From positions 9,176,001 to 9,240,000 of the forward strand of contig OX597838.1 of NCBI GenBank assembly GCA_951406725.2: a stretch of 64,000 nt of DNA, given 5' to 3'. Positions 22,862 to 61,136 of the stretch are shown piece after piece (the stretch's first letter is position 1; the number at the start of each line of letters is the position of its first letter). A program made the position numbers and the translations under genes. Source of the DNA: Octopus vulgaris (lineage: Eukaryota). A model generated the notes under the pieces. The model saw nothing but the letters and a program-made list of their open reading frames with translations. It was not told where the DNA came from and did no database searches.

Positions 22862-22992
22862 ATGGGTTATTGCGATTTTATTTTGAGTTTAATTTTCGAG
22901 TATGATACTCCAAAGATCGTCCACATCCACAGTAAGAAAGTCGGCGTCATCAATCGTTTATTACAACTGATTATAATAGGATATATTGTTGG
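22862..22992 (+). CDS. P2X: P2X receptor exon 1 (start, intracellular N-terminus, TM1)
   Basis: ATG at 22862 gives MGYCDFILSLIFEYDTPKIVHIHSKKVGVINRLLQLIIIGYIVG, with the conserved FEYxTPK (TxK) motif and TM1 (R-L-L-Q-L-I-I-I-G-Y). Ends GG|gtaagt, phase 2. Confidence 0.95.
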
Positions 22993-29798: not shown

Positions 29799-29867
29799 GA
29801 GAACGGGGCTGTGTTTGTAATGACCAATGCTGTTATAACTTACAACCAGACTCAAAGGTGTCCCCAG
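29799..29867 (+). CDS. P2X: P2X receptor exon 3
   Basis: ttttacag|ENGAVFVMTNAVITYNQTQRCPQ|gtaagt; 69 nt, phase 0/0; FVMTN and QTQxCP motifs. Confidence 0.93.
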
Positions 29868-33024: not shown

Positions 33025-33097
33025 GATGTTGCTTCTGGTGACTTTTGTACCTCCGACGCTGACTGCCCAGCTGAAACAAAGATACCAAGTGGCGATG
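33025..33097 (+). CDS. P2X: P2X receptor exon 4 (Cys-rich head)
   Basis: ttgcag|DVASGDFCTSDADCPAETKIPSGD-G|gtaagt; CxSDxDC motif; 73 nt, phase 0/1. Confidence 0.92.
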
Positions 33098-33654: not shown

Positions 33655-33748
33655 GCTTCAGAACTGGTCTCTGTGTAAACTCTTCCCAAAATGGCACTAA
33701 AGTCTGTGAGATTTATGCCTGGTGTCCATTTGAAAATGATACTTTAAG
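33655..33748 (+). CDS. P2X: P2X receptor exon 5 (head domain)
   Basis: tttccag|(G)FRTGLCVNSSQNGTKVCEIYAWCPFENDTL-S|gtaagt; GxxTGxCV and CEIxAWCP motifs; phase 1/2. Confidence 0.95.
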
Positions 33749-34618: not shown

Positions 34619-34699
34619 TGAGCCCTTACTGAAATCAGCAGCTAATTTCACCATCTTCATCAAGAACAATGTTCATTTCCCTAAATTCAATGTCTCCAG
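34619..34699 (+). CDS. P2X: P2X receptor exon 6
   Basis: cttgtag|(S)EPLLKSAANFTIFIKNNVHFPKFNVS-R|gtaaga; NFT..IKN..FPKF motif; phase 2/2. Confidence 0.95.
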
Positions 34700-40089: not shown

Positions 40090-40219
40090 GGTAAATGTTG
40101 ATTCGAATATGTCCAAAAACTGTACCTATGATCCCCATACTTTGAAATCCTGCCCCATTTTTCGCATGAGTACCATCACAGACATCTTTGGAACACCTTT
40201 TAAAAACGTTGCCCTTCAG
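40090..40219 (+). CDS. P2X: P2X receptor exon 7a (alternative dorsal-fin exon)
   Basis: Long polypyrimidine tract, then aatacag|(R)VNVDSNMSKNCTYDPHTLKSCPIFRMSTITDIFGTPFKNVALQ|gtagat. Open frame with C-x9-CPIFR and FxxVAxQ motifs; 130 nt, phase 2/0. Confidence 0.88.
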
Positions 40220-40731
40220 GTAGATAGCACGTTTGTGCCGGACATTTATTATTTATAATATTATAATAATTATCATTAACATTACTATTATCATCATCAT
40301 CATCATCACGAAGGTGGTGAGCTAGCAGGCTCATTAGCACACCAGGTGAAATGCTTAGTGGTATTTCACCTGATGCTACGTTCTGAGTTCAAATTCTGCC
40401 GAGGCCAACTTTGCCTTTTGTCCTTTCGAGTTCAGTAAATTAAACACTGGGGGTCAATGTAATTGACTCATCCTCTACCCCAGAATTGCTGCTCTTGTGG
40501 CAAAATTTGAAACCATTATTATTATTATTATTATTATTATTATCATCGTCATCGTCATCATCCCTGCTGTACTCTTTCGCCGCAACTTTCTCTCACTCTT
40601 TCTTCTGTTGGCCTGCTCACTTAGCCAGTGGGGTGGCATCATTTGAAGACTAAAACAATGCGAAGCACATTGTGACCAGTGATGTGCAGCAACATCTGAT
40701 AGCTTGGTTGGTCATGGTGATCACGGTGATA

Positions 40732-40763
<32 letters not shown>

Positions 40764-40833
40764 CTTCTATCTGCAAGTTAATTCCTTTACAAACTGTGAA
40801 TTCCCTGTCTAGAACTTTCATACATACTCACTT

Positions 40834-40911
40834 TGTCTCTGATGAAGGAATACCCAGTGTATGGAGATGCTAACCTATCACTTGGGATATCCTAGAAACA
40901 GCTGTAAGACA
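40834..40911 (+). ncRNA. Type I hammerhead ribozyme motif (minimal stem III, Penelope-type)
   Basis: TGTCT-CTGATGA-[AGGA...TCCT stem II]-A-GAAA-C AGCT G-TA-AGACA: 5-bp stem I, intact core, GUA cleavage triplet; one extra A before GAAA. Confidence 0.65.
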
Positions 40912-41019
40912 TCCAATAAGTAATTAATTAATTAATTACTTCAAATTCATCTTACTCTAATTAAATATTCTAAATGACTTGAGATACTCATCCTGCTTTG
41001 GTTTTTGCCGTCCTTTTCC

Positions 41020-41060
<41 letters not shown>

Positions 41061-41077
41061 CACACACATACATACAA

Positions 41078-41158
<81 letters not shown>

Positions 41159-41160
41159 AA

Positions 41161-41393
41161 TATACAAAATGGGACAAGAACGCAAAACATTCAAATAGAC
41201 AACACAAAAAAACAGACGGGTCATTCGAAGCCCCTAATCTTCAGTCAAGAACCGGATCATCCTCGCAATAAAATTAATCAGCCAAAATTGCGAGGATGAT
41301 CCGGTTCTTGACTGAAGATTAGCGGCTTCGAATGACCCCCCGTTTTTTGTGTTGTCTATTTGAATGTTTTGCGTTCTTGTCCCATTTTGTATT
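41161..41393. repeat. Long inverted repeat (~108-bp arms, 17-nt loop)
   Basis: ATACAAAATGGGACAAGAACGC...GGATCATCCTCGCAAT is mirrored by ATTGCGAGGATGATCC...GCGTTCTTGTCCCATTTTGTAT with only a few mismatches. Confidence 0.92.
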
Positions 41394-41714
41394 TTTATAT
41401 ATATTTTTTATACATAAATTATTGCGGCGTAACGTACACTTTGTTCTCTTATACATATATATATATATATATATAATAAATATCAGGGAATAAATCCAAA
41501 CTTACAGGGAAAAATCAAATTTAGGATTGAATCCAATTTTATAGTAAAATATTATATTATATTAAATTAGAGACAAAACCACTATTAGGCAAATCAAACA
41601 ATGAAAGACTTAAGCCAATACATAAATTAATTTATATTATTTAAATATGTAACAATTATTAAAAAAATATAATTAATATCCACTTGATTTGCCTAATAGT
41701 GGTTTTGTCTCTAA

Positions 41715-41758
<44 letters not shown>

Positions 41759-43826
41759 ATGGATATAATTTTTTTTGTGAAAAATACTTGATACAATCGC
41801 AATATTTGAAGAAAGATTTTCTTAAAAACTATCAAATGTTTCAAAAATCTTAGTAAAACAGAGTAACATGAACCCTTTGGAAGGAGGTCTTCATATTGTG
41901 TGTGTAAGCGCTTTCATTGTTAAATTTTCCAAACACATGTCATAGTCATAATCCATATAAAGGAAGTTGTTTTAAGTAGCAGTGTTGACTATTCCTCGTT
42001 TGGTTTCAGACTTTAAATTCTTGTAAAGTATTCTTCTTTTGATCATTTTCTTCCTTTATTTGAAAAAAAGGAAATATTTTGAATTTTAAATGTGCACAAA
42101 TGTCTAAATGAGATTTTTTTTTTTGAGTTGTAAAACAAAACAAAAAAAAAAGAATCTGCTGTGGAAGAATCTACCACAACAAATTCCATCTGACCCATGC
42201 CAGCATGGAAAAGTAGATGTTAAACGATTCTGATGATGATGATGATGATGATGATGTAGTAGTAGTAGTAACAGCAGCAGTAGTAGTAGTAGTTGTAGTG
42301 CAGCAGCTACCCTTAATAATTGCAGTTCTTTTACAGCTGGGTTGGGTCCTTTCTGAAATCTGAAGAGCCATAAAAAGCTTATCTTCACCTTTGATATTTT
42401 TATTTTTATTTTGCTTTTTTGCCAAAATGTGGAATGACAGATACAGTATCTGTAGGGACACAACTGCAAAAGAAATTCTTAGCGAAGAAACCCCTTCCCT
42501 CCATCACCTCTCCCCAACCCGCCCACTCGCCCACACAGACAACCACTTCATTCCTTTTATTAATTGACTTCTAATTAAGTCATATAAAATATGAGTTCTT
42601 TTAATTCCTCTTTTTTTATTCTTTATTCATTATTTGGCCCCAGTCCATATGTTTACCATTCCTTCCTCATTTTGACTTTGTTCTTAAGGATTCTTGGTAG
42701 TTTCTAAACACCTCGGTTGGAAAAATCTCTTTCTTCAGATGAAGGTCCGATCTTGTAATGTCAGATTCCTCTCCTCACAGCATCCAAACTTAAGAACAAA
42801 CATTTTTAGTTTGCATCTGTTGATCTGTAAAATGGTTTTCATAAGAATCTTGTTATGTTGTCTGGTGGGGATAATGATGGTTAGTGCAGGGCATGGAGGA
42901 GAGCAGAATATAGAGATAAGAGGAAGAGAGACAAGTGATGTGGAAGAGGCACAAAGGCAACCAGTGATTCTCAGGGGTCGAGGCTACCGTTGAAATTGTA
43001 TAAAGCAAGATGTAAGAAATCCCACATCTGGTGTTTGATGCTGAGAGATTCCATACCAATATGTTGTGTTGCCTATTCTTAGATACAGTCTATGATGTCT
43101 GTACATATTGTTACAACACTGCTCTTGGTTTTGAATGCCATTGTAAAGAGTTGGCACCAGAATGATAACCTGTAGTCTTGGAGGACTGAGAAGGTTTTGA
43201 ACACAACCCTTTCCTCCAAACCAAACCATACTGTCCTCTAAAAAATGTCTTGTAACATTTGTATTAGGCCTGTATATGAATGTTCTTTGAAGAATTCAGT
43301 GTCCAAGAAAGGTTTTGGTTCATTATAATTCTTGAGACTGTAACATAAGTTAGGAAGTTCCATACACTGAAGATCTAATGATTCTCATCGCAGAATCTGT
43401 CTGAGTTTCAGAAAAAAGATCCTAACCCAGAAGCAAAATCTAAATCCAAAATAGCTAAACATGAACAGGAAGGACCAAAATGTTGCTTAATTTATGCAAA
43501 AGGATATACAAAAAAGGGAATCTGACACATGTACCTATGAAATTGTCTAAAAGAGACGTCTCTCTTGTGAGTTCAAAGTCAGCCAGGCAGCAATTATTGG
43601 AGACAAATTATAGATCAATACTCAAACCTGAGGAATACAGATCTTCTAAAAGCTACATGTTGTAATGTGGCAACCATCAGTTCCATGGTCGCATGTGTTT
43701 ATTGGCCAGTGACTAATTAACTAACGACTTACTTATTAGTCTTCTTCTGCCTGATATCTCAGTTATATTTTAGTGATTTTTTTTTCTCCTCTCTCTCTCT
43801 CTCTCACTCTCTCCATCCAATTTCAG

Positions 43827-43980
43827 ACGTAACATAATTGGTTTTGAAAGTAATCGTCAGCTGATGACCTGCCGTTATGATCCCCGAAATGCTACAAATC
43901 GTTTTTGCCCCATCTTTATAATTCAGGATATTTTAGACTTAGTAAGAGGCGATGACAGTACCGAAAGCATTCTGAAAATG
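43827..43980 (+). CDS. P2X: P2X receptor exon 7b (alternative dorsal-fin exon)
   Basis: (CT)n tract, then tttcag|(R)RNIIGFESNRQLMTCRYDPRNATNRFCPIFIIQDILDLVRGDDSTESILKM|gtaagg. Open frame with RNI and C-x11-CPIF motifs; 154 nt, phase 2/0. Confidence 0.9.
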
Positions 43981-46966: not shown

Positions 46967-47094
46967 GGGGCCTCGATCCAAGTAAATATTGTTTGGAACT
47001 GTAACCTTGACCATTCTCTCGATGAATGCTTACCAGAATATAGGTTCACTCGATTGGATCGGTCAAACGTTGTATCGGAAGGCTTCAATTTCAG
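46967..47094 (+). CDS. P2X: P2X receptor exon 8
   Basis: tttcag|GASIQVNIVWNCNLDHSLDECLPEYRFTRLDRSNVVSEGFNF-R|gtaaga; WxCNLD, CLPxYxFxRLD and the ATP-binding GxNFR motif; phase 0/2. Confidence 0.96.
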
Positions 47095-48351: not shown

Positions 48352-48508
48352 GTTTGCAAAATATTTCCAAAGTGGGGATCAACCGATGCGGACATTGGTA
48401 AAAGCGTATGGAATCCAGTTCCTCGTTACAATTCAAGGACGTGGAGGAAAGTTCAGCATCGTTCCACTCATGTTAAATCTTGGAAGTGGTTTAGCCTTAT
48501 TATCACTG
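48352..48508 (+). CDS. P2X: P2X receptor exon 9 (pre-TM2 and first half of TM2)
   Basis: gtccag|(R)FAKYFQSGDQPMRTLVKAYGIQFLVTIQGRGGKFSIVPLMLNLGSGLALLSL|gtgtgt; RTLxKAYGI, GKF and NxGSGLALL motifs; phase 2/0. Confidence 0.96.
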
Positions 48509-49341: not shown

Positions 49342-49440
49342 GCATCGGTCGTAGCAGACATAATTATGTTATATGTTTTGAAATCAAAGAATTTTTACCG
49401 AGAACAGAAATACCAAAATGTGGATGACAACGTATATTCG
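49342..49440 (+). CDS. P2X: P2X receptor exon 10 (end of TM2, YxxxK motif)
   Basis: gtttcag|ASVVADIIMLYVLKSKNFYREQKYQNVDDNVYS|gtaaga; conserved TM2 Asp and C-terminal YxxxK (YREQK); phase 0/0. Confidence 0.94.
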
Positions 49441-50744: not shown

Positions 50745-50816
50745 TCAATGAAAGAAGACACACCAATTACTACATATAACTCCAACAAAGACCAGCGCTC
50801 TGCCTCATATCATTAA
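50745..50816 (+). CDS. P2X: P2X receptor probable terminal coding exon
   Basis: ttttctattttcag|SMKEDTPITTYNSNKDQRSASYH-stop. First strong acceptor in unique sequence after exon 10; the tail is not conserved, so this rests on splice signal and frame only. Confidence 0.65.
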   Translation, partial: SMKEDTPITTYNSNKDQRSASYH

Positions 50817-58020: not shown

Positions 58021-58185
58021 GTAGATACACACACATACACACACACACACACACACATACACACACATATATTTATATATAGATAGATACACACACACAG
58101 ACATACATTGACGCGAGCAGCCACGTTTATTCATTCATACATTCGTACACACACTCGCGCCCAACTTATTCTTCTACATACACAG
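58021..58185 (+). other. Candidate 5'-UTR intron of the NPHP1-like gene
   Basis: AACAG|gtagat donor, (CA)n-filled interior, and ttattcttctacatacacag| acceptor 11 nt upstream of the ATG. Confidence 0.5.
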
Positions 58186-58196
58186 GCGTAATAATA

Positions 58197-61136
58197 ATGT
58201 TGGGCAGGACACCAGTTGCGCTCCAGACGTTATCGAATTCGTATGATAAATTAAAAAAAGATACAGATTCGTTTCTAAAGAAGTTTAAAAAGTTTAAGAA
58301 GTCGAATCCGGACGTGAAGGAGTCGGAGAATGTTTTGGCGTTGAGCGAAGAATGTAAAAGTTTGGCGAACGAGCTGGAAGGTCTAACGAAGGAAATTGAT
58401 TTACTTGAAAATAAGGATCCGAAACAACAGAAGAATTTCGATTCCAAGAAAAAGAGCCTTCTGAAAAAAGTGGCCACCCAACAGAAACTAGTATCAGATG
58501 CTTACGATGTTATTGTTCAACAAACAGCATCAGAAGAAAACGAAGGAAACAAAAACGGTGAAAGTACCAAAGATACAGATTCAGTGGGAAAGGCGGCAGC
58601 GAAAAGCACCACAACAAAGAAGAAGCAAAAGGAGATTTCTGAGAAGCAAAATCGATCGAAGAAAGAAAACAATAATAACAGTAGTAAGAAAGGTTCCCAG
58701 TCTGGAAGCAGCATTTCAGGAAATATTCTAGGAAATCATGAAAAAGAAATAAACGAAGATATATCTGAAAATGTGGACGAGCTTGATGAAAGCGATGATG
58801 ATGATGACGACGACGACGATGAAGACGATGACGATGATGATGATGACAATGAAGAGGATGATGATGACGAAGAGGAAGAAGAGGGTGCAACTAGTACTAC
58901 TGGTGCTGCTAGTACTAGTGCCACTGCTAGCTCGAGTGGCCCAGCTAGTAGTACCAGTGTTGCAGTTACAGAGAATGACGATGTTAGTAAGGTAAAGTCT
59001 TTTACAAGTAGCCATTCTTCTTCGAAATCCAAGTTGAAAATTTTGAAACAGAAATCAGACTCTGAGAAAAGCCCCACTCAAGTTGTTCCCACGCCAGATC
59101 CTCATGAGGGACCAGCAGCAGCGACAACAACAACAACAACAACCACAGAAAGTCAAAGTTCGGTGACCAACCAGAAGAAGAAAGGTTTGAAATCAAAGTT
59201 AATAGCCGACATGAAATCAGTTTTGAAACATAATCTTCGTCCTAAAGAGAAATTACCTCCAAAAACTAAGGAACCCTTGGAAGAGGAAGATGAAGGAAAG
59301 AAGGAGGAAGAGGAGTCAGATGAAGAAGAGGTGGAGGAGGAGTCTGATGAATATGAGGCAGAAGAGGAGAAGGAGGACGTGGGTAAAGTGGATGAGGAAG
59401 AAGGGGATTCTACAAATGAGGAAGATGATGATGATGAGGAGGAGGAATCTGAGTCTGATGAAGAAGTAGAACTTCCTACTAAGTATTTTGTTGCATTATC
59501 AAACTATGAGAAAGAAGAGACGAATGATTTAAGTTTTAAGAAAGGTGAAGTCTTGAAAATCGTGCAGGCCCATCGAAATGGTTGGTGGCTTGCTGAAAAT
59601 AAGGATGGTTTTCGAGGCCTGGTGCCCAGCACCTATCTGCAGATGAGGTCTACTACTGATGTCGATGATGATGATGAGGAGGAGGAGGATAGCACTGAAG
59701 AATCGGCAAAAGATGAAGGAGAAAGTGACAGTGATGATAACTTTGAGGAAGAAGAAGAGAAAGAAAAAGAAAATGAAGAAGACTCAGATATGGATGAGGA
59801 TGTGAAAGTGGACAGCGGAGGAGATAAACCGAAAATTCGTTCTGCTAAACAACTTTGGCAAACTATCAAAGAATCGATTCAAGAACAATCCATTGTTGAT
59901 GTTCTTCAAGCAAAAGGCACTGTGCCATCTGGTTTCAGACCTTCTACTCTGAGTAGTTTATGGGCTGCCAACTCGGAGTATCGCATGGAGAAAGCACTTC
60001 ATCCGTCCTTGAGTAAAACTGCAATGGGCTATACAGATTTGTTTTACTCTCCTTCAGACAAACATATTTGTCCTTACAGTGTAAATATATTAAAAATTGG
60101 GAGCATTCAGTCTTGCCGGAACATTCCACAAACAGGTCCGGGTATCGATGTCCAGTGTCGATGCGTACGAGTTTGTATCTTTGATGGAAAAAATGTCTTG
60201 AGTAACATACACACAATCAAAGTGCAATCAGTTGATAAATCTCAAAAGTCTTGGAGTTTTTCTTCTCGTGTCTCTGATAATATGGATGTCAGTTTACATA
60301 CGGAATTCTTTGTGAGAACAAATTACTCAGGGAATCAGATAAGTTTACTGTTTGAGCTGTGTCTGTCATACACCCAACAAGACACCCAGGAACAAGGGGT
60401 ATTCAGCTGTGGTTGGACTAAGCTTTTATTAAATGAAGAAACCATTACAAACCGTTCTTATGAATTGCCCCTTCATGGTGGAACTCCCTATGATAGAGGT
60501 ATTCCTCTTGATTCCAGGTTTTCAAATGCAGTTGAAGAGAATTCCTTTCTTAGTCTCTTTACTGGGCACCAAAAGCCAACATTAGTGGTCAAAATTTTTC
60601 CTCCCAAAAAAGAACAGAAAGATGTTTTGAACAGTTTACCTCACACCATCATTGGTAATGCGTGCCTGATGCATTTCTATGCATTGTACCGGAACATTCT
60701 GGCAAAGACTCTCCTACGAGACAGAACCGATTCGGATAACACGGAGCTGATATCCAGTTCGGTTTTGGCGTCTTTCCCTTTGGTTGCGGATCAATTCGAC
60801 ATGATGCAATTGCTTCGTGACACTTGGATTGAGAAACAGAAAGAGATGAGTCGAACGGCTCGACGCGACAGCAACAACCACAAGAAGATGTTTATAGATA
60901 GTTTCCTGGAGACTGTTTACCCATTTTCCCATATACTGACCCCTGGAGGGCCTGCAACAGGCATAGACACAAGCCAAAGGCAGTATGATGCCATACAGAA
61001 ATTCAAAGAATTGAAATCAGAACGTGGATCTACGCTGGCCGTTTTGTTGAGCGATGATTTCACTTACGAACCAATGAGACTAAATGAAGTGACATTTTCT
61101 GTTTTGAAAGATAACGAATCCATAAGTGAGGCATGA
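58197..61136 (+). CDS. NPHP1: Nephrocystin-1-like protein, 979 aa, single coding exon
   Basis: Domain order matches NPHP1: N-terminal coiled coil, acidic tract, SH3 (about 59484-59642, YFVALSNYE...DLSFKKGEVL...GWWLAE...GLVPSTYL), second acidic tract, then the nephrocystin-homology region with GFRPSTLS, FDGKNVLSNIHT, FELCLSY and SCGW...YELPLHGGTPY. Confidence 0.88.
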   Translation: MLGRTPVALQTLSNSYDKLKKDTDSFLKKFKKFKKSNPDVKESENVLALSEECKSLANELEGLTKEIDLLENKDPKQQKNFDSKKKSLLKKVATQQKLVSDAYDVIVQQTASEENEGNKNGESTKDTDSVGKAAAKSTTTKKKQKEISEKQNRSKKENNNNSSKKGSQSGSSISGNILGNHEKEINEDISENVDELDESDDDDDDDDDEDDDDDDDDNEEDDDDEEEEEGATSTTGAASTSATASSSGPASSTSVAVTENDDVSKVKSFTSSHSSSKSKLKILKQKSDSEKSPTQVVPTPDPHEGPAAATTTTTTTTESQSSVTNQKKKGLKSKLIADMKSVLKHNLRPKEKLPPKTKEPLEEEDEGKKEEEESDEEEVEEESDEYEAEEEKEDVGKVDEEEGDSTNEEDDDDEEEESESDEEVELPTKYFVALSNYEKEETNDLSFKKGEVLKIVQAHRNGWWLAENKDGFRGLVPSTYLQMRSTTDVDDDDEEEEDSTEESAKDEGESDSDDNFEEEEEKEKENEEDSDMDEDVKVDSGGDKPKIRSAKQLWQTIKESIQEQSIVDVLQAKGTVPSGFRPSTLSSLWAANSEYRMEKALHPSLSKTAMGYTDLFYSPSDKHICPYSVNILKIGSIQSCRNIPQTGPGIDVQCRCVRVCIFDGKNVLSNIHTIKVQSVDKSQKSWSFSSRVSDNMDVSLHTEFFVRTNYSGNQISLLFELCLSYTQQDTQEQGVFSCGWTKLLLNEETITNRSYELPLHGGTPYDRGIPLDSRFSNAVEENSFLSLFTGHQKPTLVVKIFPPKKEQKDVLNSLPHTIIGNACLMHFYALYRNILAKTLLRDRTDSDNTELISSSVLASFPLVADQFDMMQLLRDTWIEKQKEMSRTARRDSNNHKKMFIDSFLETVYPFSHILTPGGPATGIDTSQRQYDAIQKFKELKSERGSTLAVLLSDDFTYEPMRLNEVTFSVLKDNESISEA

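Follow-up and report, generated by a model that had tools for sequence, protein, structure and literature searches.

Tandem-duplicated exon 7 in an octopus P2X receptor gene: two dorsal-fin segments for the ATP pocket and their counterparts across molluscs

Substitutions of tandem duplicated exons form a known and ancient class that is enriched in ion channels, among them CaV, NaV, Slo and GlyR/GluCl (PMC9741552). Within P2X receptors, the closest descriptions come from two molluscs. In Aplysia californica, two cDNA forms, AcP2X and AcP2Xb (NP_001191558.1 and NP_001191559.1), have been cloned; according to the supplement they differ in exon 7 only, a difference that the methods call a 147-base deletion/insertion (PMC7943599). 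In Lymnaea stagnalis, a region of 150 nucleotides (nt) and 50 residues that differs between two transcripts was read in 2012 as an alternatively spliced exon (PMC3510196). ATP-gated cation currents have been published for the orthologues of both species (PMC7943599, PMC3510196). The present work concerns the P2X gene of Octopus vulgaris carried by a stretch of 64,000 nt, hereafter the window (assembly GCA_951406725.2, contig OX597838.1, positions 9,176,001 to 9,240,000 of the forward strand), in which exon 7 is present as two diverged copies, 7a and 7b.

The explanation proposed here, which we regard as probable when taken as a whole, is that this gene carries a tandem-duplicated exon 7 and yields full-length transcripts with either copy, which would encode ATP-gated channels differing in one moving wall of the ATP pocket, the short-looped 7a form needing more ATP than the 7b form. 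The products of double inclusion or double skipping would be removed at least partly by nonsense-mediated decay. In cells making both forms, mixed trimers would have graded sensitivity; shared subunit surfaces and similar expression make the formation of such 7a/7b trimers in co-expressing cells an evenly balanced prospect.

Two copies of exon 7 in octopus and in other molluscs

The gene model rebuilt from the window comprises 11 coding exons between positions 22862 and 50816, with two candidates for exon 7 (TM, transmembrane segment):

22862..22992, + strand: exon 1, the first coding exon of P2X; start codon, T-x-K site, beginning of TM1; spliced product identical to P0002/P0003
28235..28388, + strand: exon 2; end of TM1, TKVKG with ATP-binding lysines
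29799..29867, + strand: exon 3
33025..33097, + strand: exon 4; cysteine-rich head
33655..33748, + strand: exon 5; cysteine-rich head
34619..34699, + strand: exon 6; NFT..IKN, phase 2 at its end
40090..40219, + strand: alternative exon 7a, of 130 nt; short-looped dorsal fin (11 residues ahead of the first Cys), Ser at the Leu214 position, two sequons for N-glycosylation (N207, N211); U-rich acceptor ...ATACAG, donor GTAGAT
43827..43980, + strand: alternative exon 7b, of 154 nt; dorsal fin whose loop is full-length (15 residues), Leu213 at the Leu214 position, the two Cys separated by an 11-residue spacer, a single sequon (N222) at a site unlike those of 7a; (CT)n acceptor ...TTTCAG, donor GTAAGG
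46967..47094, + strand: exon 8; left flipper, NFR, site of the early stop when 7a and 7b are both skipped
48352..48508, + strand: exon 9; RTLVKA lysine, start of TM2
49342..49440, + strand: exon 10; end of TM2, YxxxK motif
50745..50816, + strand: exon 11; final 23 residues and stop

The two copies are neighbouring and homologous, encode the same protein segment and share the same phases (entry in phase 2, exit in phase 0), which are the features that define tandem duplicated exons. A first-pass annotation, made from the DNA alone, had described them as two intact, diverged exons of 130 and 154 nt with phase 2/0, an acceptor AG and a donor GT, and all its coordinates hold on rebuilding. It had also claimed that either exon alone gives a full channel with 10 ectodomain cysteines; indeed, the product has 395 amino acids (aa) with 7a and 403 aa with 7b, each carries 10 ectodomain Cys plus Cys4, and both are letter-for-letter equal to public O. 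vulgaris proteins (P0002, P0003). The two isoforms cover positions 1-360 of the PF00864 family profile with 448.9 and 442.9 bits (cut-off 27) and display two membrane helices, the TKVKG, NFT..KN, NFR, RTLxK, T-x-K and YxxxK motifs and the ten ectodomain cysteines.

The 7a and 7b peptides are 34% identical, and no significant similarity was found between their DNA sequences, flanks included (best blastn E 0.12). Since exon-7 profiles built from other molluscs and run on the six frames of the window find exactly two copies (a profile: E 1.8e-10 and 1.5e-9), the next-best match of any of the three exon-7 profiles reaching only E 0.06, these two matches are not due to chance. The P2X gene is also the only one seen by a search of the octopus's own genome, because all 11 matches (12 candidates scored) fall within it.

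Used alone as a query, each exon retrieves a full-length octopus protein. Both forms are found in the resulting clusters for O. vulgaris (QHX41545.1, QHX41546.1) and O. bimaculoides (XP_014779935.1, XP_014779936.1), O. sinensis being represented in the same clusters by truncated models. Between O. vulgaris and O. bimaculoides, conservation measured as peptide differences amounts to 5 changed residues of 44 in 7a and 5 of 52 in 7b, the constitutive exons ranging from 1/42 to 8/53. Four tissue labels, TIP, SEM, SUB and OL, are taken here to be arm tip, two brain masses and optic lobe. Both forms are listed without comment in Tables S2 and S3 of PMC12919962 as the O. vulgaris de novo contigs c33163_g11_i2 (7b) and c33163_g11_i3 (7a), at 2.0-3.4 counts per million (CPM) in all four table columns (TIP, SEM, SUB, OL). 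Both octopus exons are live, because both occur in transcript contigs and O. bimaculoides retains each of them with changes in the range seen for constitutive exons.

The exon 7a/7b pair is mollusc-wide and not specific to octopus. Full-length searches and cluster look-ups gave 352 proteins, and 17 isoform pairs were aligned; in 14 of them, each from a single mollusc species, the difference is one large block that coincides with exon 7 (Aplysia, Liolophura, Lymnaea, Mya, Pecten, Argopecten, Mytilus edulis, Dreissena, Elysia crispata, Haliotis rubra, Pomacea, Biomphalaria and two octopuses). Further exon-7 swaps in Mercenaria, Gigantopelta and Sepia bring the total to 17 mollusc species, including a chiton, snails, bivalves and cephalopods; a Patella pair, being cross-species, was left out of the count, and the pairs from Crassostrea virginica and Lineus were rejected as exon-7 swaps, their differences lying at the C-terminus only. 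Gene models of Sinanodonta, Batillaria and Mytilus coruscus hold both copies, the a-type followed by the b-type. A pass over the proteins with a parsable exon-7 segment (299 of 352) identified 62 swap pairs among 64 proteins, 60 of them from named molluscs and 4 being further members of the cuttlefish cluster. No exon-7 swap was found outside molluscs in the Lineus, Tubulanus, Ptychodera, Montipora, Diadema and Macrostomum clusters and one more, a limited sample in which annelids are present as single models and brachiopods are absent, which bears on the upper age limit of the duplication.

Some of these genes show further variation. In oysters (Magallana; P0336, P0337, P0335 and P0338), models carry 7a and then, in frame, the last part of 7b; one oyster model has the Cys-Pro-Ile-Phe piece of 7b, and all the oyster proteins listed begin with the a type, so that oysters may use 7b rarely or via an inner acceptor. 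In Sepia pharaonis (P0068, P0307, P0308), both copies are present, each with a short loop (9 and 11 residues ahead of the first Cys), and the 7a model continues into unrelated sequence. Alternative last exons that change the cytoplasmic tail occur in many mollusc and nemertean P2X genes (P0161/P0284/P0286/P0280, P0184/P0296, P0181/P0287, P0166/P0295), and the choice of tail exon multiplies P2X isoforms together with the choice of exon 7.

AcP2X and AcP2Xb are both 434 aa long and 92.4% identical, and all their differences lie at positions 215-264 and correspond to the a/b pair, the Aplysia event being orthologous to that of octopus. The tandem duplication, its conservation in other molluscs and a separate pharmacology of the two forms are not described in the portions of the Aplysia text searched (PMC7943599). 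For Lymnaea, the variable region was assigned by the authors to the head domain and taken no further, and only the b form, LymP2X, was recorded, with a half-maximal effective concentration (EC50) of 6.2 uM (PMC3510196). LymP2X is b-type and the Lymnaea genome model a-type; we infer that the second Lymnaea transcript (FX193730) is 7a.

In the Aplysia record NP_001191558.1 (P0275), a compensated frameshift likely affects the start of 7a, at its first 13 residues. These residues (about 215-228) match other a copies at only 1 of 13 positions when compared directly; one frame over, each of 11 reference exons agrees with the shifted reading at 8 to 13 of the 13 positions. Shuffling gave a mean of about 3 compatible positions and values as high in 0 of 2000 shuffles for nine references and in 2 and 7 of 2000 for the others, and five other shift/offset settings gave 0 to 5. 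This reading concerns the record, and presence of the shift in the clone is not implied. The record is nevertheless the one behind the Aplysia oocyte electrophysiology and modelling, including the comparison of basic dorsal-fin charges (PMC7943599), and the published contrast between 306 uM for Aplysia and 6.2 uM for Lymnaea compares an a form bearing this stretch with a b form.

The first-pass annotation had left prior description of the pair open. The event is partly known, being already in databases, noted for Aplysia and hinted at for Lymnaea, but no paper on a duplicated, phylum-wide P2X exon was found in the literature searched, most subscription journals, theses and preprint supplements being outside its scope. 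Within the same literature, the phylum-wide age, the P2X7-like loop of octopus and the problem of the Aplysia record were not found in print either.

Proposed exclusion between the two copies

That exactly one copy must be included for a productive transcript, as first claimed from the DNA, stands by reading frame. As predicted, the 7a-7b join stops at the second codon of 7b, giving 245 aa, and skipping of both copies (6-8) stops within exon 8, giving 206 aa. By the established exon-junction rule, a stop lying well upstream of an exon junction invites decay, and the premature stops are 148 or 109 nt ahead of the next junction in these two wrong outcomes (double inclusion, double skipping). Because in both outcomes the stop precedes the next junction by over 100 nt, nonsense-mediated decay is proposed, and this frame logic makes it reasonably probable that exclusion is enforced at least partly in this manner.

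The exclusion may, however, be imperfect. The RefSeq model XP_029650972.1 of O. sinensis (245 aa) differs from the 7a+7b join at a single residue. The join accounts for this model, whereas read-through of the 7a donor does not. Because the model ends exactly as the 7a-7b join, it suggests that 7a+7b transcripts occur and that exclusion is perhaps leaky.

Exclusion could instead be imposed during splicing by regulators or RNA pairing, without any decay, a possibility that we hold to be real but doubtful. The two acceptors indeed differ in kind (U-rich in 7a, (CT)n in 7b), the 7a donor GTAGAT is further from the consensus, and the 7b acceptor contains CU-rich tracts, which are typical targets of PTB. 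An exclusion acting at splicing only has against it the 7a+7b model annotated in O. sinensis and the 7a-7b intron, whose length of 3607 nt, with all splice sites GT-AG, does not suit simple steric or U2/U12 exclusion. In addition, no unique docking/selector pairing between the flanking introns was found by inverted-repeat searches of the octopus sequence, which gave only microsatellites and interspersed repeats, the cross-intron inverted matches being elements that the window contains in 6 to 21 copies. Regulated choice combined with decay is the likeliest, still putative, mechanism.

The 7a-7b intron also contains two self-complementary elements, at 41082-41483 (about 400 nt) and 41549-41734 (about 190 nt), with one window match each, which look like remnants of hairpin transposons and could shorten the intron as RNA.

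The dorsal-fin loop and the ATP pocket

The first reading of the locus had proposed that the swapped part is the dorsal-fin segment at the ATP pocket, and this segment matches the one placed there by mutagenesis (PMC4232510); with both exons in use, the overall interpretation given at that stage is supported. According to the alignment, exon 7 begins at the equivalent of R203-L214 of rat P2X4. In an alanine scan of this receptor, R203A and N204A were nearly dead, and I205A and L214A shifted the EC50 about 10-fold, modelling placing I205, T210 and L214 at the ATP pocket (PMC4232510). At the R203, N204, I205 and L214 positions, octopus 7b carries R, N, I and L and octopus 7a carries V, N, V and S. 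The Leu214 position is occupied by Leu, Ile or Phe in 57 of 60 exons, the three exceptions being cephalopod 7a copies. The number of residues before the first Cys is 11 in octopus 7a and 15 in octopus 7b, as also in 11 of 15 non-mollusc exons. In the AlphaFold2 models, residues 210-215 are predicted to be helical in the 7b form, a helix that the 7a form lacks, with a predicted local distance difference test (pLDDT) of 83-96 across the exon; the best structural match of the 7a model is still P2X4.

Compared with P2X3 and P2X4, P2X7 lacks four residues in the dorsal-fin loop, which was proposed to lower ATP efficacy, a loop swap being suggested as a test (PMC5801290). Octopus 7a aligns without gaps to rat P2X7 210-248, with a weak score, and both have a Met four places before the first Cys. 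Because 7a is devoid of the ATP-contacting leucine and of the predicted helix and has a loop four residues shorter, as in P2X7, mammalian mutagenesis and the published P2X7 hypothesis tip the prediction slightly towards a lower ATP potency of octopus 7a relative to 7b; a difference of some kind in ATP sensitivity between 7a and 7b channels is likely.

Several points weigh against this explanation. The O. sinensis models are truncated predictions. The near-equal CPM of the two contigs in four tissues (PMC12919962) give no sign of tissue switching and may only reflect split shared reads. The currents of the second Aplysia isoform were reported as very similar but much smaller and unstable (data not shown in PMC7943599). 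Finally, the association of a short loop with 7a and low affinity applies to octopus and not to the phylum, because 7a of non-cephalopods has a full-length loop with the leucine and 7b of cuttlefish is also short.

A much broader reading would be that octopus 7a converged on the shortened P2X7 loop, so that one gene provides a sensitive synaptic-range receptor and a high-threshold sensor of tissue damage, with mixed trimers in between; that molluscs have relied since the Cambrian on a splice switch in the ATP pocket in place of the many P2X paralogues of the vertebrate route; and that the 50-fold potency gap between Aplysia and Lymnaea results from different exons, possibly with a frameshifted clone, and not from marine versus freshwater ecology. 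We consider this combination unlikely.

The swap might also alter something besides ATP potency, such as desensitisation, surface delivery via glycosylation, or modulation by ions or antagonists. Such an effect would suit the different number and place of the sequons (two in 7a, one in 7b), the Aplysia isoforms, which are similar in current shape and different in size and stability (PMC7943599), and the leucine kept by both copies in most molluscs. It appears rather unlikely, as in octopus the changes affect positions that shift the EC50 in rat P2X4 (PMC4232510); moreover, the Aplysia comparison relies on unpublished data concerning a record with a likely 7a frameshift.

Still less probable is that 7a of coleoids no longer forms a self-opening channel and that, built into mixed trimers, it damps them or has a dominant-negative effect. 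Octopus 7a does have Val at the Arg203 position, where R203A is nearly non-functional in rat P2X4 (PMC4232510), as well as Ser at the Leu214 position and four missing residues; the 7a branches of the exon tree are long (octopus 1.22, cuttlefish 1.58), and six assembled cephalopod-like proteins, two cuttlefish proteins in two clusters and two cluster representatives are all b-type. Against such a role, 7a retains Asn204, both Cys, CPIF and both downstream helices (pLDDT 83-93), its conservation between the two octopus species equals that of constitutive exons, and P2X7 is functional with a loop of this length (PMC5801290).

Origin of the duplication and comparison with known systems

A single duplication very probably took place before chitons split from the other molluscs, the a-then-b order being kept since; this split is more than 500 million years old. 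The exon tree was built from 60 exon peptides over 50 columns, Aplysia 7a being left out of both tree and profile training owing to its shifted start. All 24 b copies, including 7b of octopus, argonaut and cuttlefish, fall in one starred clade (98/94) together with one long flatworm branch. Under approximately unbiased (AU) tests, a duplication of their own is rejected for bivalves (p 0.0004), for the chiton (p 0.025) and, marginally, for gastropods (p 0.044). With profiles built without cephalopods, octopus 7b scores 60.9 bits on the b profile versus 37.4 on the a profile, and octopus 7a 38.4 bits on the a profile versus 24.5 on the b profile; leave-one-genus-out sorting is correct for 36 of 37 exons. 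The Cys spacing is 12 in all 24 b copies and, seven places after the second Cys, Thr is found in 17 of 21 a copies (octopus included) and Asp in 17 of 24 b copies. The upstream position of octopus 7a and its Thr/Arg features fit the a type. The reading of a single duplication includes fast change of 7a in coleoids. The flatworm branch within the b clade is Macrostomum lignano P0243, which is either artefactual or hints at a duplication that predates molluscs.

This origin also has evidence on the other side: the branch that sets the 21 a copies apart is weak (41/77); over the 50 columns, AU tests fail to reject a duplication within octopods (p 0.29) or cephalopods (p 0.17); the non-mollusc profile gives octopus 7a as high a score (39.1 bits) as the a profile does; a/b labels elsewhere were first set by motif, which makes the profile and feature tests partly circular; and the genomic order of the exons is known from octopus and from the gene models holding both copies only. 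An independent duplication of exon 7 in cephalopods, the likeness to other molluscs being convergent, is permitted by these AU tests, and ion channels commonly show tandem exon duplications that arose convergently (PMC9741552). It is nonetheless very improbable given the position of octopus, argonaut and cuttlefish 7b inside the starred clade, their b-type Cys spacing and residues, and an a-then-b order identical to that of bivalve and snail models. The reading of one exon as a dead duplicate, which the first-pass annotation had named as the outcome that would overturn it, or as an assembly artefact is effectively refuted by the assembled transcripts of both forms in O. vulgaris, the cDNA cloning of both in Aplysia and the frames kept intact across species, O. 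bimaculoides included.

The two octopus isoforms amount to a natural version of the dorsal-fin swap, the same channel with one loop changed and four residues shorter. As this swap was proposed in 2018 to test why P2X7 needs about 100-fold more ATP than P2X4 (PMC5801290), the octopus pair makes a standing pharmacological hypothesis directly testable. It is also relevant to cephalopod nociception, for which P2X is a listed candidate. Furthermore, it carries two warnings: published comparisons of dorsal fin and potency among mollusc P2X receptors mix non-equivalent exons, and the dorsal-fin loop is precisely where a local frameshift likely lies in the best-characterised Aplysia sequence.

Elsewhere in the window, at 58083-61133 (+ strand), 1017 codons make up one open frame, which carries an acidic stretch and an SH3 domain, nephrocystin-1 being among the SH3 matches. 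Its layout recalls nephrocystin-1, which is multi-exon in vertebrates.

Like the members of the class reviewed in PMC9741552, the octopus P2X gene has adjacent homologous exons that are used singly. The main text of that article, to which the search was confined, makes no mention of P2RX. Unlike the ion-channel cases listed there, the swapped module is part of an ATP pocket and the gene is single-copy in its genome. The closest solved relative of the octopus protein is vertebrate P2X4 (E 1.5e-111; Foldseek TM 0.76), whose exon boundaries are reported to be the same in Aplysia (PMC7943599). The P2X7 subtype was rejected for the octopus protein, which matches P2X7 at E 1.4e-65 only, has 403 versus 595 aa and is devoid of the long tail. 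The P2X7 loop, four residues shorter than those of P2X3 and P2X4 (PMC5801290), resembles that of octopus 7a, but the octopus protein is P2X4-like overall and the likeness is convergent at most. Vertebrate P2X4 has a single exon 7, and vertebrates vary the dorsal fin through seven paralogues, whereas the octopus gene holds two versions of this segment as neighbouring exons.

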